Shown: piece by piece, positions 11,869 to 62,131 of the stretch | Layout: every line of letters begins with the position of its first letter | Position numbering within the stretch: the first letter of the stretch is position 1 | NCBI GenBank assembly: GCA_002347265.1 | Contig: DDYB01000013.1 | Span: 207,359 to 271,358, forward strand | Length of the DNA stretch: 64,000 nt | Direction: 5' to 3' | DNA from: Desulfobacteraceae bacterium UBA2245 | Lineage (GTDB): Bacteria > Desulfobacterota > Desulfobacteria > Desulfobacterales > UBA2245 | Made by a program: the position numbers and the translations under genes | The notes under the pieces: generated by a model | Seen by the model: the letters and a program-made list of their open reading frames with translations, nothing else | Told to the model about the DNA's origin: nothing | Databases searched by the model: none

Positions 11869-12548
11869 TTTTTCGGAAACGATTTGAGCACATCTTCGAT
11901 ACCGAGAGCAGCCATCTGATCAGCGGTCATCCACTGTCCCCCTCCCCTAAGAAATGTGCTGATTTTGAGCGCATTGTCCGATAACGCGCGCTGGGTTTCA
12001 TCGAAACGTCCGGTCCAGACGATACGGCCGTCCGAGACCTGAAGCAAATGAACGTCAAATGCTACCGATGCCGGAGAATCTACTGAATACGCGACTCCGA
12101 CGCGATCCTGATACCGGTAAAGATGACCGACAAGGACAGCGTCCACCTGCAGATGCCTTCCTATTTCCAAGAGCATCTCCCGATCGGAACGCCCCTTTGC
12201 TTCGGCGGCGATCAAATCCGGAAAACTTTCACGAACCTGCTCGGGGGCAACAAGGTCGTAGCCGAATCCTTCGGACATCGTATTAAACAGCTTTTCAGAA
12301 AGCGGGCCTTCAACACCGTCCGGAACCACGCCGGCAGCAAAAACATCGCCGCATAATGGGCATCGAATATTGCCGTCATGCCCATAAATCGCCGCCAGAT
12401 CCTTAAACGGCATAACAAGTATTTTATTAATATTTTCAATTGGCTGGGCTTGAGTTAAGGGCGCCGTGCCGGTGCAGCCGGAAAGCAGAAACAACCCAGC
12501 CAAGGCCAGAATCACGATGCGTTCGGTATGGTGTTTACGCTTCAGCAT
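11865..12548 (-). CDS. lipoprotein of unknown function
   Basis: Signal peptide with lipobox LLSGC (IVILALAGLFLLSGCTG). Its stop overlaps the hisA start by 4 nt. Confidence 0.5.
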   Translation of the reverse strand: MLKRKHHTERIVILALAGLFLLSGCTGTAPLTQAQPIENINKILVMPFKDLAAIYGHDGNIRCPLCGDVFAAGVVPDGVEGPLSEKLFNTMSEGFGYDLVAPEQVRESFPDLIAAEAKGRSDREMLLEIGRHLQVDAVLVGHLYRYQDRVGVAYSVDSPASVAFDVHLLQVSDGRIVWTGRFDETQRALSDNALKISTFLRGGGQWMTADQMAALGIEDVLKSFPKK

Positions 12549-13473: not shown

Positions 13474-13549
13474 TGGTGGAGATGAGGGGGATCGAACCCC
13501 TGGCCTCGGCGTTGCGAACGCCGCGCTCTCCCAGCTGAGCTACATCCCC
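13474..13549 (-). tRNA. tRNA-Ala (CGC)
   Basis: Reverse strand is GGGGATGTAGCTCAGCTGGGAGAGCGCGGCGTTCGCAACGCCGAGGCCAGGGGTTCGATCCCCCTCATCTCCACCA. Anticodon loop is TTCGCAA, the G3:U70 alanine identity pair is present, and CCA is encoded. Confidence 0.95.
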
Positions 13550-46354: not shown

Positions 46355-46714
46355 TCAAACCCTGGCCGTCTCTTCCATAGTCATGACTACCGGTATGTTC
46401 AGCTTTTTATTGGCTCGGACAGCATTGATCTCCTCGCCCGGATTCTGTTTAAGCGCCTTCCGGTATAAAAAAATCAGGGCATTCATAGCCTGATTCTGAG
46501 TGGACGCGGCCACATCGCCATGAACAGCAGGATGGGTCAAAAATGACTCAATCTTTTTCTCACCGTCTGCAAGATCATCCCGCGATTTCATATTGTGAAA
46601 ATGAACGAATTTCCTTATCCATGCGCAATAAGACCTTTCCGTATGGATTGAATAATGCCGCAACCGCATGACATCCCGCACCTCATCCAATAATTTCCTA
46701 TCTGTTGTTGACAT
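46355..46714 (-). pseudogene. integron-type tyrosine recombinase (IntI-like), N-terminal 119 codons only
   Basis: LLDEVRDVMRLRHYSIHTERSYCAWIRKFVHFHN...FLTHPAVHGDVAASTQNQAMNALIFLYRKAL...NAVRANKKLNIPVVMTMEE matches the SAM-like N-domain of integron integrases. The ORF stops before any catalytic-domain residue (R-H-R-Y) could be encoded. Confidence 0.7.
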
Positions 46715-46853: not shown

Positions 46854-46998
46854 TTATCAGGGCGAATTAACCTGATAATCAATGGTTGATCAAGGCGCGC
46901 TACGCGCACCTTGATCAACTGCCGGGGTGCCCGGTCGACTCCGTGGTCACCGAGTCGCTACGAGCCTCGATAACCACGGAGTCGACCGGCCGTTGGCA
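46854..46998. repeat. cluster of three strong hairpins / inverted repeats upstream of the intI remnant (attI/attC-like region?)
   Basis: TTATCAGG-9nt-CCTGATAA spans 46854-46878. A 16-bp stem with one mismatch, GTTGATCAAGGCGCGC-TAC-GCGCACCTTGATCAAC, spans 46885-46919. A perfect 16-bp inverted repeat CCGGTCGACTCCGTGG ...27 nt... CCACGGAGTCGACCGG spans 46931-46989. It is followed by GTTGGCAAC. Confidence 0.5.
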
Positions 46999-47090
46999 AC
47001 TATAAATCTCTTTTGGTCTGAAAGTTCATACTGTTTTGGGAAATATCTTATCTGACAATACTCGTATAGGGATGCTGTTCCCGTGACTAT

Positions 47091-47240
47091 TAGCAGGCTG
47101 TTGAAAAACTGCGCCTGGGGCCGCCATTCAGCGTTGCACGGCTCTCGCCAATGCTCACATATGCTTGAATATGCTGCGCTTGTCGCATCGCCGCGCGCCT
47201 TGCCTGACAGCCTGATTCTTGTTTTTCAACACCCTGTTAG
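47091..47240. repeat. MITE-like repeat, copy 2 (inverted relative to copy 1)
   Basis: It is near-identical to the reverse complement of 13772-13912 apart from a few substitutions and an extra ~9 bp (TGATTCTTG) near one end. It lies between the intI remnant and the defence-type operon. Confidence 0.7.
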
Positions 47241-47271: not shown

Positions 47272-48342
47272 ATGGTTAATACTCTCCTCCAGGCTACCAC
47301 TAAACAATTTCTTATCATCTCATCCTCCGAAGGGGCAACAATGGGTGAATCAGTTCCCGTCAAATTATACTTCGAAGATTCCGGCGAGTGGTACAGCATA
47401 CCGGAGTGGGCGGAGTATTTTATAACGATCGGAAAGCTTTTCGCCGCTGCACCACAATCGGAAAGCAGGATCGTCACCGCAATAGTGGTACCCACCCGGG
47501 CATTTGGAGCGGCTTTTGTGAGCCTAGGGATGGTTGTCAGCGATGCCGCTTCACGAGATCAAGCTTCAAAAGCTGCGCATTTTGAGAGATTATTCGACTT
47601 GCCTCCGGGAACAAGCGTGATTTATCGCCCAAAGCCAGGACAAACCTTGAAAGGAGTGCTTCAAGAGCCTGAGGAATGTGATGGCAGACTGTGGGTGCGG
47701 GTTCAGGTTCAATCCAAGGAAGGGGGTGGATTGACCTGCTTTGTCGACGAATCCAAAGCGTTACAAGTGCAACCTGCCCGTCACTCCGGCAAGTTGCCGA
47801 AGAAACAGGCAGGAGAAAACGTCCGGTTCGCCAATGCATTTGTTGACAAGCTTCTGGGCGACGCTGATCCAGTGCAACTCGGGCTGCGGTCGAAACTCGT
47901 CTGTGCCCTTGTTGGCCGCAAAACTACCCTCGAACACGAAATCCGCAAGACGCCTCTGTCAGTCCATGTCAATGGCGACCACCACGCAGATGGGGTTCTG
48001 CAAGATGTTCTCCGGGTGAATCGATTTGTTACAGAGACACAATCGCATCGCTCCGCACTCGTACCCGTTGGAGCAAAGCCTCCATCCGGCGAGGTTCTCA
48101 AAAACGTCAAGATGGGGGTCATTTTTGATGGCGCGGACGGTTTCCTTAAGTGGGGCGAGATGTGGCACAGCCACCACCAAGTCATTATTCTCGACCGCAC
48201 GGAGGCTTACTTCGATGATGCGATCAGTGCTATCAATGCTAGGTTCTCCCAGAATCGTGTTGATGGTGGAATTGTTCTTCCTGAATGCGAGGCCCCTCCA
48301 GGGGGAGAAGTTCTTACGTTCCAGGAGGCGGTCATCAAATGA
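47272..48342 (+). CDS. hypothetical protein, operon gene 1 (no recognisable motif)
   Basis: ORF-track ORF. The alternative start ATG 47341 has a GAAGGGG RBS. The stop overlaps the next ATG (ATGA at 48339-48342). Confidence 0.5.
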   Translation: MVNTLLQATTKQFLIISSSEGATMGESVPVKLYFEDSGEWYSIPEWAEYFITIGKLFAAAPQSESRIVTAIVVPTRAFGAAFVSLGMVVSDAASRDQASKAAHFERLFDLPPGTSVIYRPKPGQTLKGVLQEPEECDGRLWVRVQVQSKEGGGLTCFVDESKALQVQPARHSGKLPKKQAGENVRFANAFVDKLLGDADPVQLGLRSKLVCALVGRKTTLEHEIRKTPLSVHVNGDHHADGVLQDVLRVNRFVTETQSHRSALVPVGAKPPSGEVLKNVKMGVIFDGADGFLKWGEMWHSHHQVIILDRTEAYFDDAISAINARFSQNRVDGGIVLPECEAPPGGEVLTFQEAVIK

Positions 48343-49916
48343 CACCTCTTTCAATCAGTAGCGCGACCAAGGTTTATAGAGACGCCTCCACATGCGAAAT
48401 TATCCGCCATTTGATAGACCATCCGACCCTAGCGGAATTCTCGCGCTCGCTGAGGGCATTCGTCCAATTGTTGGGGGATGAAGCCGACGATGAATTCTGG
48501 CGGCGCTCCCTCGGCCCCATTCGCCGACTCGGATTTACGTTTTGTTCTACTCCACTCCCGTTTTCGGTGGCCGCAGCAGCAGCTGGAATCGACTGGGCAA
48601 AGCTCCATCGGCAGGTACGTCTTTGCGAGCAGTTGTTTCCCGATACGCACGAGGTGTACGCGAAACTCGTCCAACAATTGGAAGGTTTGAGCTCCGAGAC
48701 TGTTTCGCCTTTTATTGGAACTCTGGAGCAAATCCACCTGCAGGGCGGACAACTTGGCGTCGTCCTGCGGAATCCCCGTATGAACCAGGCGGTGGTTGAT
48801 TTCTTCGCCCGGACCGCAACTCTCAGGAATGCCAGGGTAGTAAGTCCTTCACAACTCCGTGGTGGGCACCTGTGCAATACACTTGCCGTCATCGGCCCCT
48901 GCGGATGGTTTCCCGAACATGTGTTCTCAGCGCCACGGGCCGTGGCTGTCCACGTCATTTCGCTGCGCTGGATTCGTGACACGTGGAAACCTGGTCCAAT
49001 TTTTTTGCACGAGCCCGAGACGTCCGGCAACGGGAGCCGAAACCATCGCATCGGTGAAATGCCGAGCATCGGCGGTACAACTCGCCTGGAGAACAACTCC
49101 CCCACCGATCTCAACCCGGTGGACCTGCTCCCAGCGATTCCAACCTTCGGCCGCAATGAGCGATCGCTCGCGGGCCAATATAATGCAAGTGAAGAGACGG
49201 TTCATGCACGTTTGTGTCACCTTAGTGGCCAGCGGGCATCCTTCGTTGCAGCCTATGATGGCTCCTCGTCGCTAATAATCGACACATTAGAAACGGGGAA
49301 TGCCTTTGTTAGACGCATTCCAGCCGAAGAACTTGAACCAGGCCATTATCTCCTTCTTCGCACATCCGGGGGCGGTGATTTCATAGCCCCACTCGCTGAT
49401 CGAATAATGGGGGATCTGGCTGAAAAACGCCGGTCAGAGCAAACCGAATGGAAACAACGGCTGATCTCCGCAGCAGCCGAACGGTTTGGCACGGTAAACC
49501 GCCGGGAGCTTTCCGCCCTCGTCAGTGCTGAACTGCAGTCGCAAAATCTTTCGCAAGCCCGTCAGGCAAATGTGCATTATTGGATGTCTTCGAAGTGCAT
49601 TCGGCCGCGTAAGATCGAAGATTTTGTCGCAATCCTGACCTTCGCCGGACTTGAAGAGCGGTCCCAGGAGTTGTGGGACGCCATGGGTGACATTGATCGA
49701 GCCCACAGGCGAGCAGGCCATGTCATAAGAGGCTTGCTATTGCACAAGATCGCGACTACATCGCTTGAACCGTTGGAGCGCGATGGTGAGATGGTTTTTG
49801 AACTCAGCGACGAGGACGGCGGAACTATCTCGGCGTTCCAGATCACCGAGATAGTTGGGGAGGATTTCGAGGTGCCCATCCAACGGATCGGCGTATTGCT
49901 GGAAATGGAAGATTAG
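48339..49916 (+). CDS. hypothetical protein, operon gene 2 (no recognisable motif)
   Basis: ATG 48339 (MTPLSISSATKVY) has AGGAGG 11 nt upstream. The track start 48285 would run 58 nt (48285-48342) into gene 1. Confidence 0.5.
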   Translation: MTPLSISSATKVYRDASTCEIIRHLIDHPTLAEFSRSLRAFVQLLGDEADDEFWRRSLGPIRRLGFTFCSTPLPFSVAAAAAGIDWAKLHRQVRLCEQLFPDTHEVYAKLVQQLEGLSSETVSPFIGTLEQIHLQGGQLGVVLRNPRMNQAVVDFFARTATLRNARVVSPSQLRGGHLCNTLAVIGPCGWFPEHVFSAPRAVAVHVISLRWIRDTWKPGPIFLHEPETSGNGSRNHRIGEMPSIGGTTRLENNSPTDLNPVDLLPAIPTFGRNERSLAGQYNASEETVHARLCHLSGQRASFVAAYDGSSSLIIDTLETGNAFVRRIPAEELEPGHYLLLRTSGGGDFIAPLADRIMGDLAEKRRSEQTEWKQRLISAAAERFGTVNRRELSALVSAELQSQNLSQARQANVHYWMSSKCIRPRKIEDFVAILTFAGLEERSQELWDAMGDIDRAHRRAGHVIRGLLLHKIATTSLEPLERDGEMVFELSDEDGGTISAFQITEIVGEDFEVPIQRIGVLLEMED

Positions 49917-49918
49917 CT

Positions 49919-51655
49919 GTGGCTCGCATGATTCCTCCAGTCATTCCAGTATCTTGCCCTAGTCCAGGTGAGCAGGAAATCTTTACGCGCCTCAAAGATG
50001 AACCTGGCACCAAGAATTGGATCGTCCTCCACTCATTGGATATTGCTCACCACCTTCGCCAGGTGGCTGGTGAAACGGATTTCGTCATCATTGTACCGGC
50101 GCTTGGCGTGCTTTGTCTCGAAGTAAAAGCGTGCCATTCGCTGCGCAGAGAAAACGGACTATGGTTCTACGGTCGCGATCCCAAGGGCGATCCGCGCGGG
50201 CCATTCAAGCAGTCATCGGAAGGCATGCACAGCCTCCGCCAGCAAGTCGTGCGGAATGATCCCTCACTCTCGCGAGTTCCGTTTTGGTCCGCCGTTGCTT
50301 TCCCTTTTTTCGAGTTTACAGCAACTTCTGGTGAGTGGCATCCGTGGCAAGTGATAGATGCGCTGCGGTTTCGGCGGCAACCAGTCGCATTATTGATCTC
50401 AGAAATCTTGCGGAGTGCTCGGTCATATTTGAAATCACAGCCGTCGGCCCGCTGGTTTCGCGACTCCGACCAGTGCCCGGATCAGAAGCAGTCTGCCGTC
50501 ATCGCCCGAATTCTCCGGCCAAGCTTTGAATTTGCCGAGAGAGCCCCTGCTCGGCGTGCCCGCAAGCAAGCGGAGATCCTGCGTTACACTGAAGAGCAGT
50601 TCTCTGCGCTCGATGCAATGGCCGACAATGAACGCGTACTATTTTCCGGGCCAGCGGGCACAGGGAAAACAGTTCTCGCTCTCGAAGCGGCTCGCCGGGC
50701 ATCCAATGCGGGCAAGAGAGTCTTGCTTCTCTGCTTCAATCGGCTCCTCGGGCGGTGGCTGTCGCAGCATCATATCGCCCAGTGCGAGGCGGTCACTGCC
50801 GGGACTTTTCACCAGTACCTCCTCAGTTTCACCGGCATTGCTTTGCCTGCCGATCCGTGTGATGCTTTCTGGAAAGTAGATTTGCCTGACGCGGCAATAG
50901 CGAAGCTGATAGACGAGCCCACCGGCGACGCCCGGTTTGACATCCTTGTCGTTGACGAACTCCAAGATTTGTTCAATACCTCTTACATAGATGTTTTAGA
51001 CCTGGTGTTGAAAGGTGGGTTGGCGGCGGGCAACTGGATGCTTTTTGGCGACTTTGAACGGCAGATGCTATACGGACAGGACCGCGACGTCGCAGAAGAG
51101 TTGCGCAACGCGAGGCTCGGAGCATTCGCCAGATGCTCGCTGCGAGTCAATTGCCGAAACACTCCGCGCGTGGCGACGCTTTCACATCTTCTCGGAAAGC
51201 TAACGCCGAATTATTTGCGTGTACTACGACCAGATGACCGCATTGAGCCGGTCATTATGTACTATGCGACGCCATCCCAGCAACGGAAGCAGCTCGTCGA
51301 CACTCTCGAACGGATTCTCCGTGATTCATTTTCAGGCCAGGACATTGTGATCCTCTCTCCGAGAGCTGGAGCGCGCTCCGCAGCTGGTTCTATTGCGACG
51401 AAGCCATGGGCTGATCGGATTGCCCCGTACGAGCAAGCTGCGCCAGACCAGATTCGTTTCACGACAATCCAGAGTTTCAAAGGGCTTGAATCTGCCGCAA
51501 TTGTCGTTACTGACATTGAACATTTGGCTGGTGAACTTTTTTCGTCACTCTTTTATATTGCCACCACACGCGCTCTGGGACGGTTGTACATTCTCGTGCA
51601 TGAGACAGCCAAACCTGAAATTATCAAAGCGCTGTTGGGGCCAGAACAAAAATGA
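49919..51655 (+). CDS. NERD nuclease domain fused to a UvrD/AAA-type (SF1-like) helicase ATPase
   Basis: The N-terminus GEQEIFTRL...GETDFVIIVPALGVLCLEVKA is a NERD pattern. Walker A is FSGPAGTGKT and Walker B is ILVVDELQDL. The C-terminal TTIQSFKGLESAAIVVTDI...LFYIATTRALGRLYILV is a UvrD_C-like ending. Confidence 0.8.
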   Translation: MARMIPPVIPVSCPSPGEQEIFTRLKDEPGTKNWIVLHSLDIAHHLRQVAGETDFVIIVPALGVLCLEVKACHSLRRENGLWFYGRDPKGDPRGPFKQSSEGMHSLRQQVVRNDPSLSRVPFWSAVAFPFFEFTATSGEWHPWQVIDALRFRRQPVALLISEILRSARSYLKSQPSARWFRDSDQCPDQKQSAVIARILRPSFEFAERAPARRARKQAEILRYTEEQFSALDAMADNERVLFSGPAGTGKTVLALEAARRASNAGKRVLLLCFNRLLGRWLSQHHIAQCEAVTAGTFHQYLLSFTGIALPADPCDAFWKVDLPDAAIAKLIDEPTGDARFDILVVDELQDLFNTSYIDVLDLVLKGGLAAGNWMLFGDFERQMLYGQDRDVAEELRNARLGAFARCSLRVNCRNTPRVATLSHLLGKLTPNYLRVLRPDDRIEPVIMYYATPSQQRKQLVDTLERILRDSFSGQDIVILSPRAGARSAAGSIATKPWADRIAPYEQAAPDQIRFTTIQSFKGLESAAIVVTDIEHLAGELFSSLFYIATTRALGRLYILVHETAKPEIIKALLGPEQK

Positions 51656-51661
51656 AATCGG

Positions 51662-54600
51662 ATGGTGAAAATGCCTGACCATGTCGTGAATCGTGATGCA
51701 ATTCTCCGGTCGCTCCACGAGGAACTTGTCGGTCCATGCCCAAGTGGGAAAGAAATTGACTGCAATGCGGCCATTCAGCTGGATGACACCGAGGCAGCTT
51801 ACCGGCCGTATCGGCAACTCGGGACTGGCGAAGAGATTCTCCAGCGCGACGCACCGACGAAGCGCTACGGGGTTGGTGTCCTATACCCGATGGAAGCCCC
51901 AATTGCTCCCGGTGAAATCGAATCCCTGCCGCCATCGCCAGATGAGGAAATTGATCCCGGACCACCAAGCGGTGTCTCAGAGCCTCTAACTGCGTCCGCA
52001 ATCCGTGATTGCGAGGCTATTGCGGGGCGGGCTCAAAGCCGCATCCCAGAGGCCGATTCGGATGACTTTGACCTATCATCGGCAAATGCCTATAAACCTA
52101 GTAGTATGGCTGTAAGCCTTCTAGTGCTCCTTCCGGAAAACGCCAAATTGGTAGTGTCCGCCACTGGCGGCCGCTATGCCATCAAACCGGTAATGCTTGT
52201 TGGGCGCGAACGTCAATGGTGGCTCCGCTCTCCAGTTCGCCTTTGCAGCCAATTTCGCAGGGATGATTTTCCCGTATCACGTGCAGGTTACGCAACTGCG
52301 CGAGAGCCGATCCGCGAGAATATAGACAATCTTGACGTACGGATCGAAGTCTTCACTAGGCCGTACAGGTCCAAACCCAACGAATTTCTTATCACTGTCT
52401 GCTTGGTCAATCGCCAGCAAGCAGAGGGGCGATTGGATTTGCAGTCCCTCTTCCAGTGCCACTTCGATGTGAAGATCGAAGGTGGAAGCTCCGCTGGAGC
52501 CATGATATTGCCGTATCCAACAGCAGAGCCTCTGGACAGTGAAGAGCGCTCCCAGGAATTGCTTTTCCGGGAGAAGCTCACGTTCGCTGTCGGCCACGGA
52601 TGCGCTGCTGAATGGGTGCGCGGCGATACACCCACCAGCGCCAAGAGCGTCTCAGCAGAGTGCTTGCCGATGTTTGAGACGCCAAGTACGACGCCCGATA
52701 TCCGTGCCAAGAGCGGGGAGCCGCTGGTCGCGTCCATGCGGTCTCTCGCTGGCATCGATCCTGAAACCGACGGGTTCGACCAACTCGATGGGATTGTGAG
52801 CGAGTACGAACAGTGGATCTCCGAGCAGGAGGCGCGGATACCCGTACTCAGCACTCAGCTCCAGGAGACTGCGCGACTTCACATGAGTGAATGCGCAGAA
52901 GCTGCTGGGCGGATGCGCGACGGCTTTTCACTTTTACAGAGGGATTCGGAGATCAGGCGGGCATTCCAACTCGCAAACCTTGCTATGCTGATCCAGCAAG
53001 TGCGGTCGAGGCGCGAAGCCCGCATCGCGTCGTTCGACCAGTCCACTACGACGCTCACGTTCGAGGAGCCATACGTTTTGCTCGATCTTAATTCACCGCG
53101 TGCGCGAGCGTGCCAGTGGCGCGCATTCCAGATTGCTTTCATACTCGCGTCGCTCCGTTCAACCGCCGATACTGGCGATACTGACCGCGAACGCGTCGAG
53201 CTAATCTGGTTCCCCACCGGCGGCGGCAAGACCGAGGCCTATTTCGGGCTGGCAGCTTTTAGCATATTTCTGCGTAGGCTCCGGAATCCTGCCGATACTG
53301 GAGTGAATGTACTGATGCGTTATACGTTACGGCTGCTAACAGCGCAGCAGTTCCAGCGCGCATCGCGCCTTATCTGTGCAATGGAGTTCGTCCGGCAGCA
53401 GGACAGCGCTGATTTGGGTGACGCGAAAATCTCTATCGGCATCTGGCTCGGAAGCTCGACGACTCCGAATACGCATGCCGAAGCTCAGGCTGTGCTCCGC
53501 AGCCTAACCAGGGGGGATGGTGCCAAAGAGAATCAGTTTGTGCTCGACCGATGCCCGTGGTGCGGAGCGCAAATGGGGCCGGTCAACCTCGCCGGCAGGG
53601 GACGAGGACGCAGAGGTGTTCCCCGGGTTATCGGGTATATTCGGCGCGGCAACACTGTCGTGTATTCATGCCCTGACCGCAGCTGCGAGTTCCATAGATC
53701 TCTCCCGCTTTATGTCATCGACGAGGATATATACGAGACTCGCCCGGCACTTGTGATTGGCACTGTTGACAAATTCGCAATGCTTGCCTGGCGACCGCAG
53801 GCGCGGGCTCTGTTTGGCATCGGAGACGATGGGACTAGAGCGAATTCGCCACCTGGGCTTATCATCCAGGACGAGCTGCATCTCATCTCTGGCCCGCTCG
53901 GCTCAATGGTTGGCCTTTACGAACCCATCATTGAGGAGTTATGTACTGACCGCCGCGGCCCGGCCCTCGCCCGGCCCAAGATCATCAGTTCCACAGCGAC
54001 GATCCGCAGTTATACGGAACAAGTGCAAGGGTTGTATGCGCGGGGGAGGACCAGCCTGTTTCCCCCACCGGGGTTAGATACCGATGACTCCTTCTTCGCA
54101 AGGGTCGCCCGCCGACCGGACGGCACTCTGGAAAGGGGGCGAGTATACGTCGGCGTTCACGCCCCTGGGCTTGGATCGCTCCAGACAGTTCAGGTTCGTA
54201 CGTTTGCGGCACTGTTGCAGGCTCCCCAGCCACTTCCGGCACCCGACCGCGACCCCTGGTGGACACTCCTCCTTTTTTTCAACAGTCTCCGAGAGCTTGG
54301 AACGACGCTCACTCTATTCCAATCGGATATTCCAGATTTGTTGAAGGGATCTCTCAGACAGCGACTCGGCATCGGATTTCAGGATGTTCGCCAGATCAGA
54401 AAAATGTTGGAACTCACTGGCCGCCTGCCGGGAGACGAAGTGCCAAAAGCTATATCTGCACTTGAAGTGCCAACCGACTCGCGGCAGGGGTATGCCGCAG
54501 ATGTCTGCCTTGCTTCGAATATCATCGAAGTCGGAGTAGACATTGATCGGCTCTCGCTCATGGCTGTCGTCGGTCAGCCTAAAACGACCTCGCAGTATAT

Positions 54601-55177
54601 TCAGGTAACGGGCCGCGTTGGCCGGAAAGCAGATCGGCCTGGCCTTGTGGTCACGATTTATGCCGCATCAAAACCCCGTGACCGCTCCCATTTCGAGAAG
54701 TTCCGCAGTTATCACGAGCGGCTTTACGCCCAGGTTGAGCCTACGAGTGTAACGCCATTCTCGCGCCCGGCACTCGATCGGGCGGCACATGCTGTGATCG
54801 CGAGTTACGTCAGGCAGTCTGGAAACTCGGACCAGGCCGAAAGCCCCTACCCGTTCCCCGCGGCACTTGTTGAAGACGCGGCCAGAATTCTCGAGGGCCG
54901 CGCGGCATTTGTTGATCCAGATGAACTCGCCGCACTCCATAGAATACTCCAGAAGAGAGCCGACGAGTGGCAGCGCTGGCAGCGGCTGAGATGGTCGGGC
55001 GCACTGCACGCGGAAGACATGCCCCTCATGAGGCCTGCCGGAGCTTACGTCGCGCCAGATAAGGCGCGGGTTTCGTGGGCTACCCCACAATCCCTCCGTA
55101 ATGTGGATGCGGAGTGCCAAGCAGAAATCACACAGCTATACATGCTGGAGGAACTGGAGGACACCGAAGATGCCTAG
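51662..55177 (+). CDS. SF2 DEAH-box helicase, DISARM DrmA-like (1171 aa)
   Basis: Motif I IWFPTGGGKTEAY lies at about residue 520. Motif II is IIQDELHLISGPLG, motif III SSTATI, and motif VI QVTGRVGRK. It is followed by an overlapping DUF1998 gene and an MTase. Confidence 0.75.
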   Translation: MVKMPDHVVNRDAILRSLHEELVGPCPSGKEIDCNAAIQLDDTEAAYRPYRQLGTGEEILQRDAPTKRYGVGVLYPMEAPIAPGEIESLPPSPDEEIDPGPPSGVSEPLTASAIRDCEAIAGRAQSRIPEADSDDFDLSSANAYKPSSMAVSLLVLLPENAKLVVSATGGRYAIKPVMLVGRERQWWLRSPVRLCSQFRRDDFPVSRAGYATAREPIRENIDNLDVRIEVFTRPYRSKPNEFLITVCLVNRQQAEGRLDLQSLFQCHFDVKIEGGSSAGAMILPYPTAEPLDSEERSQELLFREKLTFAVGHGCAAEWVRGDTPTSAKSVSAECLPMFETPSTTPDIRAKSGEPLVASMRSLAGIDPETDGFDQLDGIVSEYEQWISEQEARIPVLSTQLQETARLHMSECAEAAGRMRDGFSLLQRDSEIRRAFQLANLAMLIQQVRSRREARIASFDQSTTTLTFEEPYVLLDLNSPRARACQWRAFQIAFILASLRSTADTGDTDRERVELIWFPTGGGKTEAYFGLAAFSIFLRRLRNPADTGVNVLMRYTLRLLTAQQFQRASRLICAMEFVRQQDSADLGDAKISIGIWLGSSTTPNTHAEAQAVLRSLTRGDGAKENQFVLDRCPWCGAQMGPVNLAGRGRGRRGVPRVIGYIRRGNTVVYSCPDRSCEFHRSLPLYVIDEDIYETRPALVIGTVDKFAMLAWRPQARALFGIGDDGTRANSPPGLIIQDELHLISGPLGSMVGLYEPIIEELCTDRRGPALARPKIISSTATIRSYTEQVQGLYARGRTSLFPPPGLDTDDSFFARVARRPDGTLERGRVYVGVHAPGLGSLQTVQVRTFAALLQAPQPLPAPDRDPWWTLLLFFNSLRELGTTLTLFQSDIPDLLKGSLRQRLGIGFQDVRQIRKMLELTGRLPGDEVPKAISALEVPTDSRQGYAADVCLASNIIEVGVDIDRLSLMAVVGQPKTTSQYIQVTGRVGRKADRPGLVVTIYAASKPRDRSHFEKFRSYHERLYAQVEPTSVTPFSRPALDRAAHAVIASYVRQSGNSDQAESPYPFPAALVEDAARILEGRAAFVDPDELAALHRILQKRADEWQRWQRLRWSGALHAEDMPLMRPAGAYVAPDKARVSWATPQSLRNVDAECQAEITQLYMLEELEDTEDA

Positions 55178-57065
55178 AGGACCAGTACGGCGTGGGCAAC
55201 TCATCTCTCCCTTCGGCCCCGGTGCCATGATGATTCTACCGGATGGCGTCTCCGTCATCTGTGCCGGGCTTGACCACTGGTTCAAGCACGAATCCGGAGA
55301 CGATGAGAACATCGACCCGCGAGAGTACCAGGTAGACGAATGGCGACTTGCGACTCGCCTCAACGTGGAACATTTCTATCTCCCCCCAGACTACCGGCGT
55401 GTACGCCGACATGATCCTCTGACCAACGGTTACCTGACCGTCCCATTTCTCCGCTTCCCGCAATGGCACTATTGCACTCGCTGCGGCTTGATGCGCAAAG
55501 TCCCGATAGTCACAAAGGAGCGGATCAAGTGCGCAGAATGCGAGGCACGGGGATGGACCCGCTACATGGTCCAGGTGCCCTTCGTCGCCATGTGCGATGC
55601 CGGTCACATTCAAGACTTCCCGTGGCTTGAATGGGTGTATCGATCTGCAACTCCACCGCAGAACTCGCCACCGATGCGGCTCCTTTCAACCGGTGGAATG
55701 ACACTCGCTGGCCAAAAGGTTAAGGTCGATGGTGGCCCTGAACGAACTCTCGCGGGAATCACTAACGCAAACCCAGACGGCGCCGACACCGAATTGAGCC
55801 GGACGCTCGATAGCGATAGGTCGCCCTACTTGTGCCCCGGCCTACGCCCGTGGCTTGGCACCGAGCATGGCGAGGGATGCGGCAGGCCACTTCGTGGCAC
55901 GCTCCGGAGTGCCGCCAACGTCTACTTCGCGCAGGTGCATAGCTCGATCTATCTCCCCCGCACTGACGATAGCACCGTGGCCGAGGTTATAACACTCCTG
56001 GAACAACCATCTATTAGCACATTTGTCGAAATTCTCACCGGAGCAGGTGTTACCCCCGAACCAGCTCAGTTACGAAAGCAGTTCCGGGAGTTGCTCGCTG
56101 CGTTCACTGATCGGCAGATACAGCTGGCCATCGATACGGTGTGCAGTGGGGGGGCGAGCCGACAGCAAAGTGGCCGGATGGAAGGCGATGACGCAGAAAC
56201 CGGCTTCCGGAGGCAAGAATATGATACTCTGGTTGCTGCCGCCGACTTCGAGCAACTGGTGCTTAAGCCAGCCGATCGCAGGCGATACGCTCCGCAGTTC
56301 TCCCAATACTTCGCGAATGTAACGCTTGTCCACAAGCTGCGGGAGACTAGGGCGCTAACTGGCTTCACGCGAGTATTTGCGGATACTGACCGCGATATTG
56401 ATTACTTGCAGGGAATGCTGCGGCTCAATGAGCCCGAGGTGAGGTGGCTGCCAGCCTTTTTGGTCTTCGGCGAGGGTGTGTTTCTCACCCTAAACGAACA
56501 GCGTTTAAGGCAATGGGAAGAGCAGCCAGAAATACGGGCTCGCGTACATCCACTTGTAGCCCGATACCACGCCCTGCGCCAAGCTCGCCATCTCAGGGAT
56601 CGCCAAGTCGGCCCGCGGTACGTCCTGCTGCATACTCTTGCGCACCTCCTCATCAATCGACTGACGTTTGAATGCGGCTACAGTTCCGCCGCACTCCGGG
56701 AACGCCTTTACGTATCTGAAAATACTGCCGCGCCAATGTCGGGGATACTGATCTATACGGCGGCTGGTGATGCCGAAGGCACACTCGGCGGACTTGTTCG
56801 AATGGGAAAGCCGGGCAGGCTGGAGCCACTGCTCGAACGGGCGCTCAGCGGTGCGCGGTGGTGTTCTGCTGACCCCGTTTGCATGGAAATGGGACAGAGT
56901 GGCGGGCAAGGCCCGGACTCACTGAATCTCGCAGCGTGTCATGGCTGTAGCCTAGTGCCTGAAACAGCCTGCGAGGAATTCAATCGCCTGCTTGACCGAG
57001 GGCTAGTTATCGGGCCATTCGACAACCCAACTATTGGGTATTTTAGCAGAGCCACGGAGGGCTAA
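55170..57065 (+). CDS. DUF1998 domain protein, DISARM DrmB-like
   Basis: ATG 55170 overlaps the helicase stop (ATGCCTAG). There is an N-terminal Zn ribbon CTRC-x15-CAEC. The C-terminus reads HTLAHLLINRL...IYTAAGDAEGTLGGL...CSADPVC...LNLAACHGCSLVPETACEEFNRLLDR, the DUF1998/MrfA-type Zn module. Confidence 0.75.
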   Translation: MPRGPVRRGQLISPFGPGAMMILPDGVSVICAGLDHWFKHESGDDENIDPREYQVDEWRLATRLNVEHFYLPPDYRRVRRHDPLTNGYLTVPFLRFPQWHYCTRCGLMRKVPIVTKERIKCAECEARGWTRYMVQVPFVAMCDAGHIQDFPWLEWVYRSATPPQNSPPMRLLSTGGMTLAGQKVKVDGGPERTLAGITNANPDGADTELSRTLDSDRSPYLCPGLRPWLGTEHGEGCGRPLRGTLRSAANVYFAQVHSSIYLPRTDDSTVAEVITLLEQPSISTFVEILTGAGVTPEPAQLRKQFRELLAAFTDRQIQLAIDTVCSGGASRQQSGRMEGDDAETGFRRQEYDTLVAAADFEQLVLKPADRRRYAPQFSQYFANVTLVHKLRETRALTGFTRVFADTDRDIDYLQGMLRLNEPEVRWLPAFLVFGEGVFLTLNEQRLRQWEEQPEIRARVHPLVARYHALRQARHLRDRQVGPRYVLLHTLAHLLINRLTFECGYSSAALRERLYVSENTAAPMSGILIYTAAGDAEGTLGGLVRMGKPGRLEPLLERALSGARWCSADPVCMEMGQSGGQGPDSLNLAACHGCSLVPETACEEFNRLLDRGLVIGPFDNPTIGYFSRATEG

Positions 57066-58175
57066 ATGGAGATACCGCTTCTATCATTCTTTACCGGAGG
57101 AGGTTTTTTCGATATAGGGTTCAAACAGGCGGGATTCTCTGTCTGCTGGACAAATGAGAATTGCCCAGCATTCATCACTGGATACGAGTACGGAATGTCG
57201 TCATGGCTTTCCTCGCTTGGTAAGCGAGCACAGGCAGCAAGTATCGCCAACCCCAAGAGTATCTGCAATCTGACTTCCCTTGGGGTACTCCGAGAAGCAT
57301 TCGCCGGGCCACGGCCCAAACTTTTTGGTGTCATCGGCGGTCCGCCCTGCCCCGATTTCAGTAATGGCGGCACGCACGCTGGCGGTAACGGTTCAAACGG
57401 CATACTCACTAGCGTGTTTGCCAACATGATTTGCGAACTGCACCCAACCTTTTTCGTCATTGAAAACGTATCTGGGCTTTACCGCGTTCGGAAGCACCGC
57501 GCCTTTTTGGAAATCAAAATCGCCCAGTTGAGAGAGCGCGGCTATGCAGTTGATTACAAGATTCTGAATGCTCTTGAGTTGGGAGTGCCACAATATCGCG
57601 AAAGGCTTTTCATCGTCGGAATCAAAAAAAACATCGCTCAATGCGGTGCTGAAAGAAAACTCACTGTGGCAGAGGAAGGATGGTTTACATGGCCAATAGT
57701 TGATGCATACACTGGGGCGAAATCGCTCCCCTGGCCGACAACAGCGCCATTCGGCGAAAAGCCTACCAAACCCAAAGAGATTCCCCTCGAACTTACCGTT
57801 TACCCGGCGCTGTTTGGAAAAGGTGACCCGGAAAAGCTTCCCAACGGGTGCGATTTCTTCAACCCGTATTCCAGCCGTTTCAATACAATTCCGGAAGGCG
57901 ACGTTGCACGAAAATCATTCAAGAGGCTCCACCGTTACCGGTTCAGCCCAACAGCATGGTACGGGAATCAGGAAGTGCATTTGCACCCTTCCAAGGCAAG
58001 GCGCTTGTCGGTCCGTGAAGCGCTGCGAATTCAATCAGTGCCGGATGAATATGTGTTGCCGGAAGAAATGACACTCTCGGCAAAATTCAAGCTGGTTTGC
58101 AACGGCGTGCCCTGCGTCATGGCATCCCACCTCGCCACCGCGGTGAAATCGTTCTTGAAGCGAGCAAGTGCATGA
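57066..58175 (+). CDS. DNA (cytosine-5)-methyltransferase (DrmMII-like position)
   Basis: Motif I FFTGGGFFDIG, motif IV GGPPCPDFS, motif VI FFVIENV, motif VIII QYRERLFIVG, motif X CNGVPC. The ATG directly abuts the upstream TAA (TAAATG). Confidence 0.9.
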   Translation: MEIPLLSFFTGGGFFDIGFKQAGFSVCWTNENCPAFITGYEYGMSSWLSSLGKRAQAASIANPKSICNLTSLGVLREAFAGPRPKLFGVIGGPPCPDFSNGGTHAGGNGSNGILTSVFANMICELHPTFFVIENVSGLYRVRKHRAFLEIKIAQLRERGYAVDYKILNALELGVPQYRERLFIVGIKKNIAQCGAERKLTVAEEGWFTWPIVDAYTGAKSLPWPTTAPFGEKPTKPKEIPLELTVYPALFGKGDPEKLPNGCDFFNPYSSRFNTIPEGDVARKSFKRLHRYRFSPTAWYGNQEVHLHPSKARRLSVREALRIQSVPDEYVLPEEMTLSAKFKLVCNGVPCVMASHLATAVKSFLKRASA

Positions 58176-58924
58176 CTCGCAGAAAACGGGTTCAAAGGCG
58201 AACATTTCCAGAAGTTGAGAACATAGCACGCATCCTTTCGGAATGCTACGGGGATCACGCGCACAACAACAAAATGAACCCGTTGAACGAATTGCTATTT
58301 ATTGTTTGTAGCGTGCAAACGAACGAGAGACTTTACCAGTCCACATATTCGAGCCTGAAAGCAAAATTCCCCAGTTTTCGCCAACTCGCTGATGCGGAAG
58401 AAGATGAGATTGCCCCTATCATCGCTCACGGTGGACTTGCACGCCAAAAGGCTCAAAAGCTCCGTGCAATTCTGGCCCGCGTGGAGGCCGATTTCGGGAG
58501 ACCAACGCTTTCACCATTGCGGAAAATGGGCGATGCTGAATGCGAAAGGTATCTGGTGTCCCTGCCCGGTATCGGGAAAAAAACAGCCCGTTGCGTGATG
58601 ATGTATTCGCTGGGCCGTGACGTATTCCCCGTCGATTCGAACTGCTGGCGCATTTGTCGAAGGATAGGATGGGTACGGGCAACTCGCCCAGACCGATCGT
58701 GCTCGCCGCGAGACATGGATCGTGTTCAAGCGGGGATCCCGCCAAAGCTTCGATTCAGCTTGCATGTGAATTTTATATCTCACGGTCGTGCATGTTGCCT
58801 GCCTTCAGCAGCGCTTTGTGACGAATGCTTGATTTGGCAGTTCTGTAAAACGGGAAGCCGTCGGATGGCGTCTAGTAGGGTTCTTGGGGACATCCTATAT
58901 CCTCTCTGTCAACACAATTTTTAA
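58172..58924 (+). CDS. endonuclease III-family HhH-GPD DNA glycosylase with [4Fe-4S] cluster loop
   Basis: ATG 58172 overlaps the MTase stop (ATGA). HhH is LVSLPGIGKKTARCV and the Asp region is FPVDSNCWRICRRIGW. The C-terminal CLPSAALCDECLIWQFC has C-x6-C-x2-C-x5-C spacing. Confidence 0.8.
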   Translation: MTRRKRVQRRTFPEVENIARILSECYGDHAHNNKMNPLNELLFIVCSVQTNERLYQSTYSSLKAKFPSFRQLADAEEDEIAPIIAHGGLARQKAQKLRAILARVEADFGRPTLSPLRKMGDAECERYLVSLPGIGKKTARCVMMYSLGRDVFPVDSNCWRICRRIGWVRATRPDRSCSPRDMDRVQAGIPPKLRFSLHVNFISHGRACCLPSAALCDECLIWQFCKTGSRRMASSRVLGDILYPLCQHNF

Positions 58925-59238: not shown

Positions 59239-60231
59239 TTATTCGATCTTCAGCAGATCCGGGTTAAACTCTTGCGCCTTTTTCATCATGGTCCAGGCGA
59301 TCACCAGCATCTTTGCGCTCAGCTTAACCCGCATCTTTGTGCGAATGCCTTTCTCTTTTTCCCGGCCTCTGAGTAGATTCTCAAAATAGGTCATGAACCG
59401 AGTATTTTTCGAAGAAGCGATCAGACCGGCCTGATACAGCCCGTAGCGCAGGTCCGACTTTCCCCGTTTGGAGATAACGGCTACAGCGGACTGACTCTTC
59501 TTTCCGCTTCGAACGGCATTCAGATCCAGACCGGCCAGCCTTATTACCTGAGAAGCGTTTTCAAACCGGTTCGGATCGCCGATCGACGCCAGCGCCAGCG
59601 CTGAAATGTAGGGACCAAATCCGGGAATGGTCATCAACAGTTGGTAATGCTCAAAACCAAGACAGATCTCGTGAATCCTGCGTTCGATCTGATTGATGCG
59701 CGCCCGGATCTTTTCCAGATCATCGACCAGTATCTCGGCTTCAAGCTCGGCGGACGTCCCCAGGCGGCACCCCACGGAATGCGCCGCTGTTTCCCACACC
59801 CCGCGCAGCCGATTGCGTTGTTTCAGACCGCGGTTTTTACTGGCAACCATCCTGACGAAGGCGTCAAACTTCAGCTCTCGGATTTTAATCGGAGGCAGGC
59901 ACCATCGCACAATGGCCAGGTTCTCAGCTTCAGATTTGTTCCAAAACCGGTCCAGCTCGGGAAAGTATTGCGCCACCAGGTTGTTGCGAATTCGAATCCG
60001 TTGACCGTGCTCCTGCTTTTTCAGCCGTTTTCGAAGCAAAAGCAGATTGCGCACGTCTCTGAGGCCTTGCTGTGGAGGATCGTAGAAATGGCATTTACCC
60101 TGCGAAATCAAATCCGCCACGTTGGCCGAATCCTTGGTGTCGTTCTTGTCCCACCGGCCGTCTATAAGAGATCGATTCTTCTTGATGGCGTCGTTGGTCA
60201 CGTCGGCTATGGAGGGCATCTTCAAAGACAA
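59239..60231 (-). mobile_element. IS110 family transposase gene, 5'-truncated remnant
   Basis: The C-terminal Transposase_20-type region is LLMTIPGFGPYISALALASIGDPNRFENASQVIRLAGLDLNAVRSGK. The ORF begins at the KNDTKDSANVADLI (KTDxxDA) segment, so the first DEDD motifs (GIDxxK etc.) are missing. An in-frame TGA lies immediately upstream (60232-60234). Confidence 0.8.
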
Positions 60232-60303: not shown

Positions 60304-61086
60304 TTGAAAAACCCCAGCAAGAAAAACGATCTATTCTTTAAGCTTTTGTTCGCTATCAAAAAGACCGATCCGTTGTTGATCGATCGTTTTAAGCGGTTCG
60401 AGAGCATCGACAATCAAACCCGTTTCGCTTTGGATGAGGCCGCTTTGCAAAAGCGATACTGGAGTTTGAAGCTGGCTCAAAACTGTCGCTTTGAACGCGG
60501 TTTGGACTTGTTTGCCGGTGTGGGATACTCGGGGCATATCTATTCCACCTGCTGTGAAAAGGTTGTCGCCATCGAGAGCGACAAAGCGGCATTTGAGTGC
60601 CTGGAACGGAACCTGGGAATCCATTCGAATGTCGAATTAATTCATGGCGACAATCTGGATTTTTTGGCGGGGTACTCGGGACCGAAATTCCAACTCGTGG
60701 ATGTTGATCCCTTCGGGACGCCTCATATGCAACTGGAACATCTCGATAAAATCTTTGACGCGGGGGTTGTCGCGATCACTTCCGGGTCGATAATGGCTGT
60801 CTCCAGGGGGCTTGTCAACAGCGCGGCACACATACCTGGAAGCGATCTGAAAAAATACAGGGGGATAAACGCCGTCACTTGGGCGAAAAGCGTCTATCTG
60901 CCTTTCCTTTGTGAAACATACCGATTAAGGCTGGAAGCGTTTTACCTTTATCCTTCGAGTTTGCGGGCAATTTTTACCCGAGACTATTTTTTGCCGCCGG
61001 GCTGCTTTCCAGGCGAGACTCATTTGGGCTGGTTCAGGGGGGTAAAATACTTAACGTTTATATCGCGAGCCCGTACAGGGTGCTGA
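60304..61086 (+). CDS. class I SAM-dependent methyltransferase, Trm1-like (DPFG motif)
   Basis: SAM motif LDLFAGVGYSG and catalytic-type motif LVDVDPFGTP, compared from memory with Trm1 IDLDPFGSP. Start uncertain. Confidence 0.55.
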   Translation: MKNPSKKNDLFFKLLFAIKKTDPLLIDRFKRFESIDNQTRFALDEAALQKRYWSLKLAQNCRFERGLDLFAGVGYSGHIYSTCCEKVVAIESDKAAFECLERNLGIHSNVELIHGDNLDFLAGYSGPKFQLVDVDPFGTPHMQLEHLDKIFDAGVVAITSGSIMAVSRGLVNSAAHIPGSDLKKYRGINAVTWAKSVYLPFLCETYRLRLEAFYLYPSSLRAIFTRDYFLPPGCFPGETHLGWFRGVKYLTFISRARTGC

Positions 61087-61372
61087 ATAAAACGTTCGGG
61101 CACAAATCGATACGGCGGATGAGCTTACTTTACCGGGCATACTCCACGTTGGCCGGTGGCGTCGCATTTTGGGCATCAGGCTCATTCCCATGACCATAAA
61201 TTTTAAATGGCATTGGGCTTGAAAGGAGCCGCTTGATGCGATAGATTGCCTGATTTGTTGGTTACGGTCCAAGGGGTACAGCACGCTTTAAGGCTTGGCA
61301 TCCCTTTGTTTTTTCTATCAAAAATCTTTTAATCAACCTGTCTCCATTCGGAGGCGCTCGGAAAGGGATGCA

Positions 61373-61612
61373 ATGAACTGCAAATCTATAGCGGTCATCT
61401 CACTGATGGTTTTATCGCTGCTGTTTTCTGGCTGCGCTTCTCTCACCTATCAAACTGCCGATGGGTCGAAAGTGAGATACATACGGATACTAACTGGATC
61501 GGACTGCATCAAAGGGCAGATGCCTGGAGCTGCAATCGAGGTTGCGGGGCAGCAGGCTATCGACCCAGCGGCGCTTGAGGCTGCGGGCCAAGCCTTAAAA
61601 CTGGCGAAATGA
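61373..61612 (+). CDS. small lipoprotein
   Basis: MNCKSIAVISLMVLSLLFSGCAS has a signal peptide and lipobox. Track start 61295 trimmed to ATG 61373. Confidence 0.5.
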   Translation: MNCKSIAVISLMVLSLLFSGCASLTYQTADGSKVRYIRILTGSDCIKGQMPGAAIEVAGQQAIDPAALEAAGQALKLAK

Positions 61613-61690
61613 CCGCAAGCGCAACGATCATCTGCGCTCTACAGCCTTGTTGCGGGGCTTGACGGGAAGACGGACCGGGAAAAACTGGAA

Positions 61691-62131
61691 ATGGTGAACC
61701 AGTTTTTCAATAACAAAATCCGCTATGTTCCCGACGACAAGGTTTGGGGCGTTCCGGAATACTGGGCAACTCCGGGTGAGTTAATCGCTTGCGGCGCTGG
61801 CGACTGCGAAGACTCGGCCATTGCGAAATATTTTACGCTGGTTGAATCCGGTGTTGACGAGGATTGCCTTAAGATCGTCTGCGCCCGCCTGTTGGATACA
61901 GGCCAGGCCCATATGACGTTGTTCTACCAGGACTCTTTTGTCTTGGACAATTTAATCGGCAAGATTTTAACGACGGAGGAACGAAGCGACCTGTTGCCGG
62001 TGTTGGGGTTCAATCGCCGGGGGGTGTGGCTATTCACGCAGGGGGAGCCAAAAATGCTGACGCGGCACCCCAGCAAGCTGAAGCGATGGCGCAAGTTGCT
62101 GGCGCGGATCAAACAGGAGCGCGATGGATAG
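61691..62131 (+). CDS. transglutaminase-like cysteine peptidase (BTLCP / LapG-like, COG3672), lacking its own signal peptide
   Basis: VNQFFNNKIRYVPDDKVWGVPEYWATPGELIACGAGDCEDSAIAKYF (Cys), QAHMTLF (His) and VLDNL (Asp). The homology continues upstream of the ATG in the same frame as far as a TGA at 61610. Confidence 0.65.
   Translation: MVNQFFNNKIRYVPDDKVWGVPEYWATPGELIACGAGDCEDSAIAKYFTLVESGVDEDCLKIVCARLLDTGQAHMTLFYQDSFVLDNLIGKILTTEERSDLLPVLGFNRRGVWLFTQGEPKMLTRHPSKLKRWRKLLARIKQERDG

Follow-up and report, generated by a model that had tools for sequence, protein, structure and literature searches.

The window analysed here, a 64,000-nucleotide (nt) stretch of contig DDYB01000013.1 from Desulfobacteraceae bacterium UBA2245, revealed a compact block of seven genes (g1–g7) that is probably, on sequence comparison, an anti-phage DISARM cassette of the class 2 type, horizontally mobile and with a variant architecture. 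At its centre lie genes matching a short-form DrmA helicase (g4), a separate DrmB (g5) and a C5 cytosine DNA methyltransferase (g6). Three genes upstream encode a 333-residue protein with no known domain (g1), a divergent protein of the DrmE family (g2) and a nuclease–helicase fusion (g3), and one gene downstream encodes a DNA glycosylase of the endonuclease III (EndoIII) family (g7). The architecture had not been described, but it varies a known system, DISARM, and is not a new kind of system; g2 is already labelled DrmE-like in databases.

The seven open reading frames (ORFs) all lie on the + strand, from 47341 (47272 when the first frame is read from where it opens) to 58924, and neighbours either overlap or are separated by at most 8 nt. 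Stop and start codons overlap as ATGA at the g1/g2 junction (48339–48342) and, again by 4 nt, at the g6/g7 junction (ATGA, 58172–58175); g4 and g5 share the 8-nt overlap ATGCCTAG (55170–55177), and g5 and g6 meet as TAAATG (57063–57068). Gaps separate g2 from g3 (TAG-CT-GTG, 49914–49921, with 2 nt before the GTG at 49919) and g3 from g4 (51655/51662, with 6 nt before the ATG at 51662). An earlier note on this DNA had listed the same seven ORFs and six junctions, all of which were re-found where it had placed them, as were, in the translations, the helicase motifs FPTGGGKTEAY, IIQDELHLISGPLG, SSTATI and QVTGRVGRK, the DUF1998 cysteine module, and the C5-methyltransferase motifs FxGxG, PPC, ENV, QxRxR and GNGVP of g6. 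Its start for g1, 47272, lies 69 nt too far upstream. The start is almost certainly the internal ATG at 47341, because homologues of g1 (n = 209, all annotated as "hypothetical") are uniformly ~332 residues long, nucleotide homology with related cassettes begins only at 47320–47331, and a Shine-Dalgarno-like sequence, GAAGGGG, precedes this ATG. The start of g3 is ambiguous between GTG 49919 and ATG 49928. Comparison with three relatives gave dN/dS ratios of 0.07–0.29 for all seven genes (0.11–0.29 for g1), which is indicative of purifying selection, and thus g1 and g2, which had been described as motif-less, are real genes. Co-transcription of the seven genes is plausible. A scan for promoters and terminators returned nothing above the shuffled expectation, and no sigma-70-type signal stood out, a point against the reading preferred here.

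The NCBIfam model DISARM_DrmAS matches g4 (51662–55177, +; superfamily 2, SF2, helicase) with 870 bits (E 2.4e-261), as compared with 600 bits for the long-form model, and the PADLOC DrmA model matches with 686 bits; its sole sequence relative in the PDB is DrmA from Serratia (7s9v_A, E 4e-145). The product of g5 (55170–57065, +), with an OB-CON-DUF1998/MZB zinc module, matches NCBIfam DrmB_fam with 424 bits (cutoff 240), Pfam MZB at 7e-9 and PADLOC DrmB with 231 bits, and its sole PDB relative is the Serratia DrmB (7s9v_B, E 2e-70). For g6 (57066–58175, +), the matches are to Pfam DNA_methylase (PF00145, E 8.7e-43) and TIGR00675 dcm (1e-35). By these matches g4 is DrmA, g5 is DrmB and g6 is a C5 cytosine methyltransferase in the role of DrmMII, in agreement with the core proposed in the earlier note (DrmA, a separate DUF1998 protein as DrmB, and a C5 methyltransferase). 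Two scores weigh against so simple an assignment: the 870 bits of g4 fall below the DISARM_DrmAS equivalog cutoff of 950, and the best PADLOC model for g6 is DruM2 (425 bits, full length), the DrmMII models reaching at most 97 bits. In the NCBI annotation of relatives, the PGAP names for DrmA and DrmB are only "helicase-related" protein and "DUF1998". The phospholipase D (PLD)-type nuclease DrmC (pfam13091) is absent, as had been noted: none of the seven proteins matches a PLD family in PADLOC, Pfam or NCBIfam, and in 21 loci the interval between g5 and g6 leaves no room for drmC.

The same matches bear on whether the block serves defence at all. It is very improbable that it is instead a DNA-repair or maintenance operon built from an MrfA/YprA-like helicase and a glycosylase, or a functionless decaying relic. 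Such readings could draw on the membership of repair enzymes such as MrfA in the YprA family of helicases (Bell et al. 2025), on the repair-type glycosylase encoded by g7 and on the decayed mobile elements that flank the window copy. However, g4 and g5 match DISARM DrmA and DrmB specifically, with DrmA and DrmB as their only PDB relatives, and the helicase and the DUF1998 module are carried by separate genes, which Bell et al. describe as a hallmark of DISARM. Moreover, all of the ORFs are intact and under purifying selection, and the cassette is distributed patchily across phyla between unrelated flanks, with one copy (locus L025) set among WYL, SLFN and McrB defence genes.

The arrangement seen in the window recurs widely. 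Loci were collected by a genome scan and a metagenome scan, both anchored on g2 (n = 36), with one further locus from an exact-protein look-up, and the genes in each were counted by tblastn with all seven proteins. Wherever a locus is long enough to judge (~37 loci), genes g1–g6 stand in the same order and closely packed, and g6 follows g5 within 6 nt in 21/22. This order and packing, recurring in ~37 independent loci, are far beyond chance, and the seven genes are not an accidental juxtaposition. The hosts are metagenome-assembled genomes from at least six phyla, comprising Thermodesulfobacteriota, Planctomycetota (many), Nitrospira, Gammaproteobacteria, Acidobacteriota, "Deltaproteobacteria" and a Clostridia bin. 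Identity is 73–96% for the core proteins, as compared with 49–93% for g1 and g2, which are thus less conserved.

More distant versions are plasmid-borne. Rhodococcus opacus pROB02 carries genes for a hypothetical protein, a g2-like protein, a NERD helicase, DrmA and DrmB, adjoining a NaeI restriction–modification system with a C5 methyltransferase and Vsr; the ORF ahead of its g2-like gene encodes 207 residues without detectable similarity to g1. Bacillus sp. FDAARGOS_235 has the order Vsr, g1-like, g2-like, DrmA, DrmB; B. toyonensis has DrmA, DrmB, g1-like, g2-like; and Nostoc HK-01 has g1-like, an insertion sequence (IS), g2-like, DrmA, DrmB. On these plasmids of Bacillus and Nostoc, the g1-like/g2-like pair travels with DrmAB. 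Accordingly, g1/g2 with DrmAB form the deepest conserved unit, with the NERD helicase and the methyltransferase (with its repair gene) as clade-specific additions that are nearly fixed in the clade of the window.

Three loci share with the window a single block of nucleotide similarity (L001, 84.5% identity; L027, 91.5%; L028, 80.8%) that starts at 47320–47331, only 10–21 nt ahead of the g1 ATG, and ends at 58863–58878. The flanks are unrelated, and the cassette is thus the unit of transfer. In L025 the cassette lies among genes for WYL, SLFN/AlbA_2, Fic-like and ADP-ribosylglycohydrolase proteins, directly upstream of McrB. Synonymous divergence (dS) from L027 is uniform (0.20–0.49), whereas that from L001 is ~1.0 for g4 and g5 and 0.12–0.44 for g1–g3, g6 and g7, a mosaic that points to recombination swapping the DrmAB core between cassettes.

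These data allow the unity of the cassette to be weighed. A minimal DISARM (g1/g2 with DrmAB), a stand-alone defence gene for a NERD helicase (g3) and an orphan methyltransferase with its repair enzyme (g6 and g7) might travel together with no functional dependence on one another, a reading that we consider unlikely. It could account for the match of g3 to PADLOC models of unrelated systems (RTasNERD-Hel, 3e-28, and C3a187), for the lack of g3 in the Bacillus and Nostoc operons and in L013, for g6 being missing from L007 and from the neighbourhood of the Nostoc and Bacillus versions, and for the recombination inside the cassette that the dS values of L001 indicate. Set against this, g3 keeps its position in ~33/34 loci across at least six phyla and g6 follows DrmB in 21/22, and Rhodococcus retains the order g2-NERD-DrmA-DrmB at only 39–48% identity. 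In addition, class 2 DISARM requires its cognate C5 methyltransferase for self-protection, drmE being essential and drmC dispensable (10.1101/2021.12.28.474362).

Individual loci show further changes in the cassette or its surroundings. A decayed copy in L014 (13341–16660), in which g4 is cut off at residue 727 and continues directly as g5 from residue 233 onwards, carries an internal deletion that fuses DrmA and DrmB. The NERD helicase is lost from L013, where a 560-nt gap without an ORF (11578–12139) takes its place. In L007 (7664–8320), g6 and g7 are missing downstream, and a different C5 methyltransferase (28% identity) lies upstream of g1 on the opposite strand. L024 (19866–21038, Nitrospira sp. 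MA-1) contains an uncalled g7-like frame (75% identity over residues 14–230) followed by a gene of the cytidine/dCMP deaminase family, with an intact IS110 transposase ~5 kb upstream of the cassette. In two loci (L029, 17572–17667; L030, 19006–19100), a tRNA-Ala(CGC), homologous to the tRNA-Ala of the window at 13474–13549, lies ~700 nt downstream of g7, so that the cassette there adjoins a tRNA gene. Such genes are common insertion sites for genomic islands.

Of the two proteins described as motif-less in the earlier note, which had seen no DrmE, g2 (48339–49916, +; 525 residues) belongs to a family that carries the domain DrmE_C. The Pfam model (PF24957) matches 20/20 members of the g2 alignment (best E 3e-6). 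The plasmid homologues are more readily recognized than the window protein itself: the Nostoc homologue (BLASTP 3e-87 to g2) matches NCBIfam DrmE_fam at 3.6e-18 over profile positions 393–802 of 838, and the Bacillus homologue (1.5e-19 to g2) at 3.1e-19 over positions 331–832 of 838, with scores of 65–69 bits. Bacillus relatives of 505–507 residues are already named "DrmE family protein" in NCBI/UniRef, others bearing names of the form DrmE "domain-containing protein" and "DISARM protein DrmE C-terminal…". An exhaustive profile search placed 1156 clusters (at 50% identity) in the g2 family at E ≤1e-3, and 555 at E ≤1e-30. The top 150 clusters are all stand-alone proteins of ~500–540 residues with no full-length DrmE among them, and the family is mostly annotated as "hypothetical". 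This family-level and transitive evidence is consistent with g2 being a DrmE-family protein that covers approximately positions 331–838 of the DrmE model. To that extent one partner gene, g2, falls through DrmE_C into a defined DISARM family, which goes part of the way towards an outcome that the earlier note had named as one that would make the operon a known subtype.

Two results weigh against this assignment. The window g2 matches DrmE_C only at E 0.027 (residues 321–468, 14.6 bits; gathering threshold 27) and DrmE_fam at E 0.007, at the extreme C terminus (14.6 bits; cutoff 80), and the PADLOC DrmE models match neither g1 nor g2. An AlphaFold2 model of g2 (pLDDT 70.6) has an N-terminal α/β domain weakly similar to SF2 RecA2 lobes (E 5e-3; Fun30, RIG-I, FANCM and XPB), from which NTPase motifs are absent. 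Residues 357–463 also give a faint match to PADLOC DruD of Druantia type I (E 0.0027) that overlaps the DrmE_C region, and DISARM DrmE and Druantia DruD may share a domain.

No Pfam, NCBIfam or PADLOC model matches g1 (47341–48342, +; 333 residues), and the quality of its AlphaFold2 model is low (pLDDT 57.5), the one hint being a Tudor/SH3-like barrel at non-significant E-values. It lies directly upstream of g2 in every case, with an overlapping stop and start of the ATGA type, and divergent g1-like proteins of 326–341 residues are found beside the g2-like proteins of Nostoc and Bacillus. The length of g1 approximates the ~330 positions of DrmE_fam that g2 leaves uncovered, and the Bacillus g1-like and g2-like proteins together have 833 residues, as compared with the 838 positions of the model. 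From position and length, g1 may be the detached N-terminal third of a split DrmE. Two results argue against this proposal: no g1-like protein matches DrmE_fam, the N-terminal ~330 model positions being unmatched by the locus, and joining the two Bacillus proteins, while giving a colinear match (29–832), lowered the score from 68.7 to 56.7 bits and does not serve as evidence. Paralogy of g1 and g2 was rejected, as alignment of their profiles by hhalign shows no relation. Likewise, a 500-residue candidate fusion of g1 and g2 (P0170) proved to be merely a read-through ORF in the g1 frame.

A different protein stands in the DrmE position on plasmid pMK02 of L. plantarum (L023, 2830–11911), which carries a C5 methyltransferase, an 801-residue protein, DrmA (DrmAS score 861 bits) and DrmB, a further DISARM-like operon. 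The 801-residue protein was considered as a canonical DrmE and rejected, having no DrmE_fam match and no relation by hhalign to the g1 or g2 profiles; it is a further uncharacterized protein in this position.

The g3 product (49919–51655, +) is a fusion of a NERD nuclease of the PD-(D/E)xK type with a superfamily 1 (SF1) UvrD-like helicase, as had been suggested before. It matches Pfam NERD (1e-10) and UvrD_C_2, PADLOC RTasNERD-Hel from end to end (3e-28) and the C3a187 NERD+UvrD model (4e-16), and has no PDB relative by sequence. Both activities look intact, because the nuclease motif GE[T/A]DFV…LEVK and the helicase motifs GPAGTGKT, VVDELQD, FGDFERQ, KGLE and ATTRA are conserved across 12 homologues, one of them the Rhodococcus protein at 39% identity. 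The gene is present in ~33/34 informative loci, missing only from L013, and in the clade of the window it comes after the DrmE-like gene and before DrmA, separated by gaps of 2–30 nt. The DISARM nuclease has been called "a mystery", and a mix-and-match of nucleases has been proposed (Bravo et al., PMC9142583). With its catalytic motifs and near-universal presence, g3 is a candidate for the effector nuclease that stands in for DrmC. Neither L013 nor the relatives in Bacillus and Nostoc have this gene, and NERD helicases occur in unrelated defence contexts (PADLOC RTasNERD-Hel). Both observations speak against that role, and g3 may be an accessory rather than the effector. An SF1 helicase also accompanies another DISARM-like variant, on plasmid p1 of Streptomyces fungicidicus (L021, 2983–12915), where a 1273-residue "sigma-70 family" protein precedes DrmA-DrmB and a 361-residue "DNA helicase" with 29% identity to the g3 helicase core follows them.

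The glycosylase assignment of g7 (58172–58924, +) in the earlier note was borne out. The protein is of the helix-hairpin-helix (HhH)-GPD/4Fe-4S type (Pfam HhH-GPD, 7.5e-11), and its best PDB match is EndoIII-1 of D. radiodurans (1.8e-25), followed by matches to ROS1 (3e-14) and Mig.MthI (5.6e-7). Its catalytic residues Lys (GKKTA) and Asp (VDSN) are present, as is the Fe-S motif C-X6-C-X2-C-X5-C, and a C-terminal tail specific to the window starts at ~58870. The position after g6 is a slot with varying content, occupied by g7 in 14 loci, by a bona fide Vsr (PF03852, ~1e-32) in three (L005, L006 and L032) and by nothing in two, and Vsr genes also adjoin the Bacillus and Rhodococcus relatives. 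Because Vsr alternates with g7 in this slot, and because Mig.MthI, an Fe-S glycosylase of the HhH superfamily, is known to counter 5-methylcytosine (5mC) deamination (PMC2714593), g7 most likely serves g6 as a repair accessory, acting on the T:G or U:G products of that deamination. Interchangeable with Vsr, it fits this role better than that of a novel defence partner, as which it had been presented. Mig and MutY lack the EndoIII-type catalytic Lys. Its retention in g7 counts against the accessory reading, as does, for T:G specificity, the fact that the closest solved relatives of g7 are oxidized-pyrimidine glycosylases. A search of plasmids with g7 returned only housekeeping nth genes (<31% identity) and was uninformative on context.

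Alternatively, g7 could itself act in defence, as an effector or sensor that removes bases from foreign DNA, whether modified or unmethylated cytosines or, in the manner of ROS1/DME, non-self 5mC, leaving abasic sites or nicks for the DrmAB and NERD helicases to process. Such a role would suit the complete EndoIII catalytic set and Fe-S cluster, the match to ROS1, which is a plant glycosylase for 5mC, another match to the PADLOC model "Type II nicking endonuclease" (2e-7), and the translational coupling of g7 to g6 and its presence in 14/19 informative loci. It is nonetheless quite improbable: the slot is filled by a dedicated T:G repair nuclease in three loci, and left empty in two, a Vsr gene stands beside the Bacillus and Rhodococcus relatives as well, the ROS1 match is weaker than the ordinary EndoIII matches, and an enzyme that excises 5mC would turn on the modification of its own host.

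Collectively, these data suggest a model for the cassette as a class 2-type DISARM. From its family and from published class 2 DISARM, g6 would mark the host DNA with 5mC. By homology to the Serratia complex, whose ATPase activity rises with unmethylated DNA and falls with 5mC DNA (PMC9142583), the DrmA-DrmB pair of g4 and g5 would load on single-stranded DNA (ssDNA) and 5' overhangs of unmethylated incoming DNA and translocate, and g1 and g2 together would, also by homology, provide the DrmE function that is essential in class 2 systems. The steps assigned to g3 and g7 derive from catalytic motifs, position and the alternation in the slot after g6: g3 would take the place of DrmC as the DNA-degrading effector, and g7 would stand outside the restriction step, repairing the T:G mismatches left by deaminated 5mC as Vsr would in the sister cassettes.

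A stronger claim would be that the cassette represents a distinct third class of DISARM, with a two-subunit DrmE (g1 and g2) and the NERD-SF1 protein as a DNA-destroying effector recruited by DrmAB. This falls somewhat short of an even chance. In its boldest version, the EndoIII-like glycosylase may also take part in the processing of non-self DNA. If true, this reading would supply the nuclease step that DISARM has long been missing.

The surroundings of the window copy are, as had been described, decayed on both sides, and profile coverage confirms this. To the left lies an integron-integrase remnant (46355–46714, − strand; TIGR02249, E 8.5e-32, positions 1–110/315; Pfam Phage_int_SAM_4 only), which retains only the N-terminal third and is oriented away from the cassette. 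Next come palindromes within 46885–47239 (46885–46919, 46931–46989 and 47091–47109/47221–47239), of which the imperfect inverted repeat 47091–47239 spans 149 bp, its last arm closing with ...CCTGTTAGGT, a sequence similar to the GTTRRRY core; the 17-mer palindrome arm is unique to this site within the window. This left-flank geometry is integron-like, and the cassette block is promoterless, as in integron cassettes; no attC-like element matching the left repeat was found after g7. To the right is an N-terminally truncated IS110-family transposase (59239–60231, − strand; NF033542 positions 90–342/343, E 1e-34), which lacks approximately the first 90 model positions and matches Pfam Transposase_20 and part of DEDD_Tnp_IS110. 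Beyond it, the interval 60304–62131 holds an ORF of 260 residues resembling S-adenosylmethionine-dependent methyltransferases, with weak TRM1/Erm-type matches, and a fragment of a LapG-like cysteine protease (NF045674 positions 69–215/221).

In DISARM systems at large, DrmC is dispensable and often absent, DrmE is essential, and structural work exists for the DrmAB core only. A NERD nuclease-helicase in the stead of DrmC is a concrete effector candidate, and a DrmE function carried by a 525-residue protein and a separate 333-residue partner should help to dissect the domains of DrmE. A methyltransferase accompanied by its own deamination-repair enzyme, whether EndoIII-like or Vsr, documents the mutational cost of self-marking with 5mC. 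The substitution of NERD for PLD and the two-gene DrmE are useful handles on open questions about DISARM, although not very surprising ones. Annotation pipelines probably under-call such systems, because most of the g2 family is named "hypothetical", the DrmA and DrmB that go with it score under the NCBI naming cutoffs and the PADLOC DrmE models miss.

Among known systems, Druantia type II (DruM-DruF-DruG-DruE) shares with the cassette the full-length DruM2 match of g6 and, faintly, the DruD-like match of g2. It differs in that g4 scores only ~18 bits against DruE, as compared with 686 for DrmA, and no DruF or DruG match was found among the seven proteins. ARMADA type II (Bell et al. 2025) likewise combines a methyltransferase, a YprA-family helicase and a UvrD-like SF1 helicase with an N-terminal nuclease-type domain, the counterpart of g3 being ArmD (a RelE-like RNase with a GajB-like helicase). 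However, the BrxHII/SNF2 helicase, the PglX N6-methyltransferase and the Druantia-like YprA helicase with a fused DUF1998 of ARMADA have no equivalent in the cassette: PglX gave no match, and the BrxHI/HII models reach only the generic helicase C-lobe of g4 (E ~8e-4). By these matches, the cassette is neither Druantia II nor ARMADA. The "DISARM-like cassette linked to McrBC" of the CoCoNuT paper was also considered; it is of the ARMADA type (SNF2 and PglX) and is not the g1–g7 system. Bell et al. state that the DISARM-like clade holds "many uncharacterized DISARM-like … classes", and their text and supplements make no mention of a NERD, DrmE or EndoIII variant. No published description of this architecture, or of further such DISARM classes, was found in the literature, which agrees with the suggestion of the earlier note that the architecture is undescribed.

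The end of the cassette resembles the Dcm-Vsr and M.MthTI-Mig.MthI pairs, in which a C5 methyltransferase gene is followed by an overlapping gene for a small enzyme (Vsr itself in the sister loci), although g7 is nearer to EndoIII-1 than to Mig and, unlike Mig.MthI, keeps the catalytic Lys. With class 1 DISARM (Serratia sp. SCBI, drmMI-drmD-drmA-drmB-drmC), the cassette shares homologous DrmA and DrmB, known from cryo-EM structures (7s9v/7s9w), and presumably the sensing of ssDNA and 5' overhangs. It differs in having neither the SNF2 protein DrmD nor the N6-adenine methyltransferase DrmMI (no DrmD, DrmMI, SNF2 or N6-methyltransferase match among the seven proteins), and in that g4 fits the short form of DrmA better.

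The closest known relative is class 2 DISARM (Bacillus paralicheniformis, drmE-drmA-drmB-drmC-drmMII). Both have a short DrmA and a separate DrmB encoded by genes that overlap, a C5 cytosine methyltransferase, and a patchy, horizontally transferred distribution that includes defence islands; ahead of drmA, both also have a protein of the DrmE type, assigned in the cassette at family level. The DrmA of the cassette lies just under the NCBI equivalog cutoff, and as a result PGAP names its relatives only "helicase-related protein". The cassette further differs in that it lacks the PLD nuclease DrmC and has a NERD-SF1 helicase-nuclease between the DrmE-like gene and drmA. Its methyltransferase is nearer to PADLOC DruM2, with an EndoIII-like glycosylase or Vsr appended, and its DrmE equivalent is a protein of 525 residues, corresponding to approximately the last 500 of the 838 model positions, accompanied by the obligate 333-residue g1.

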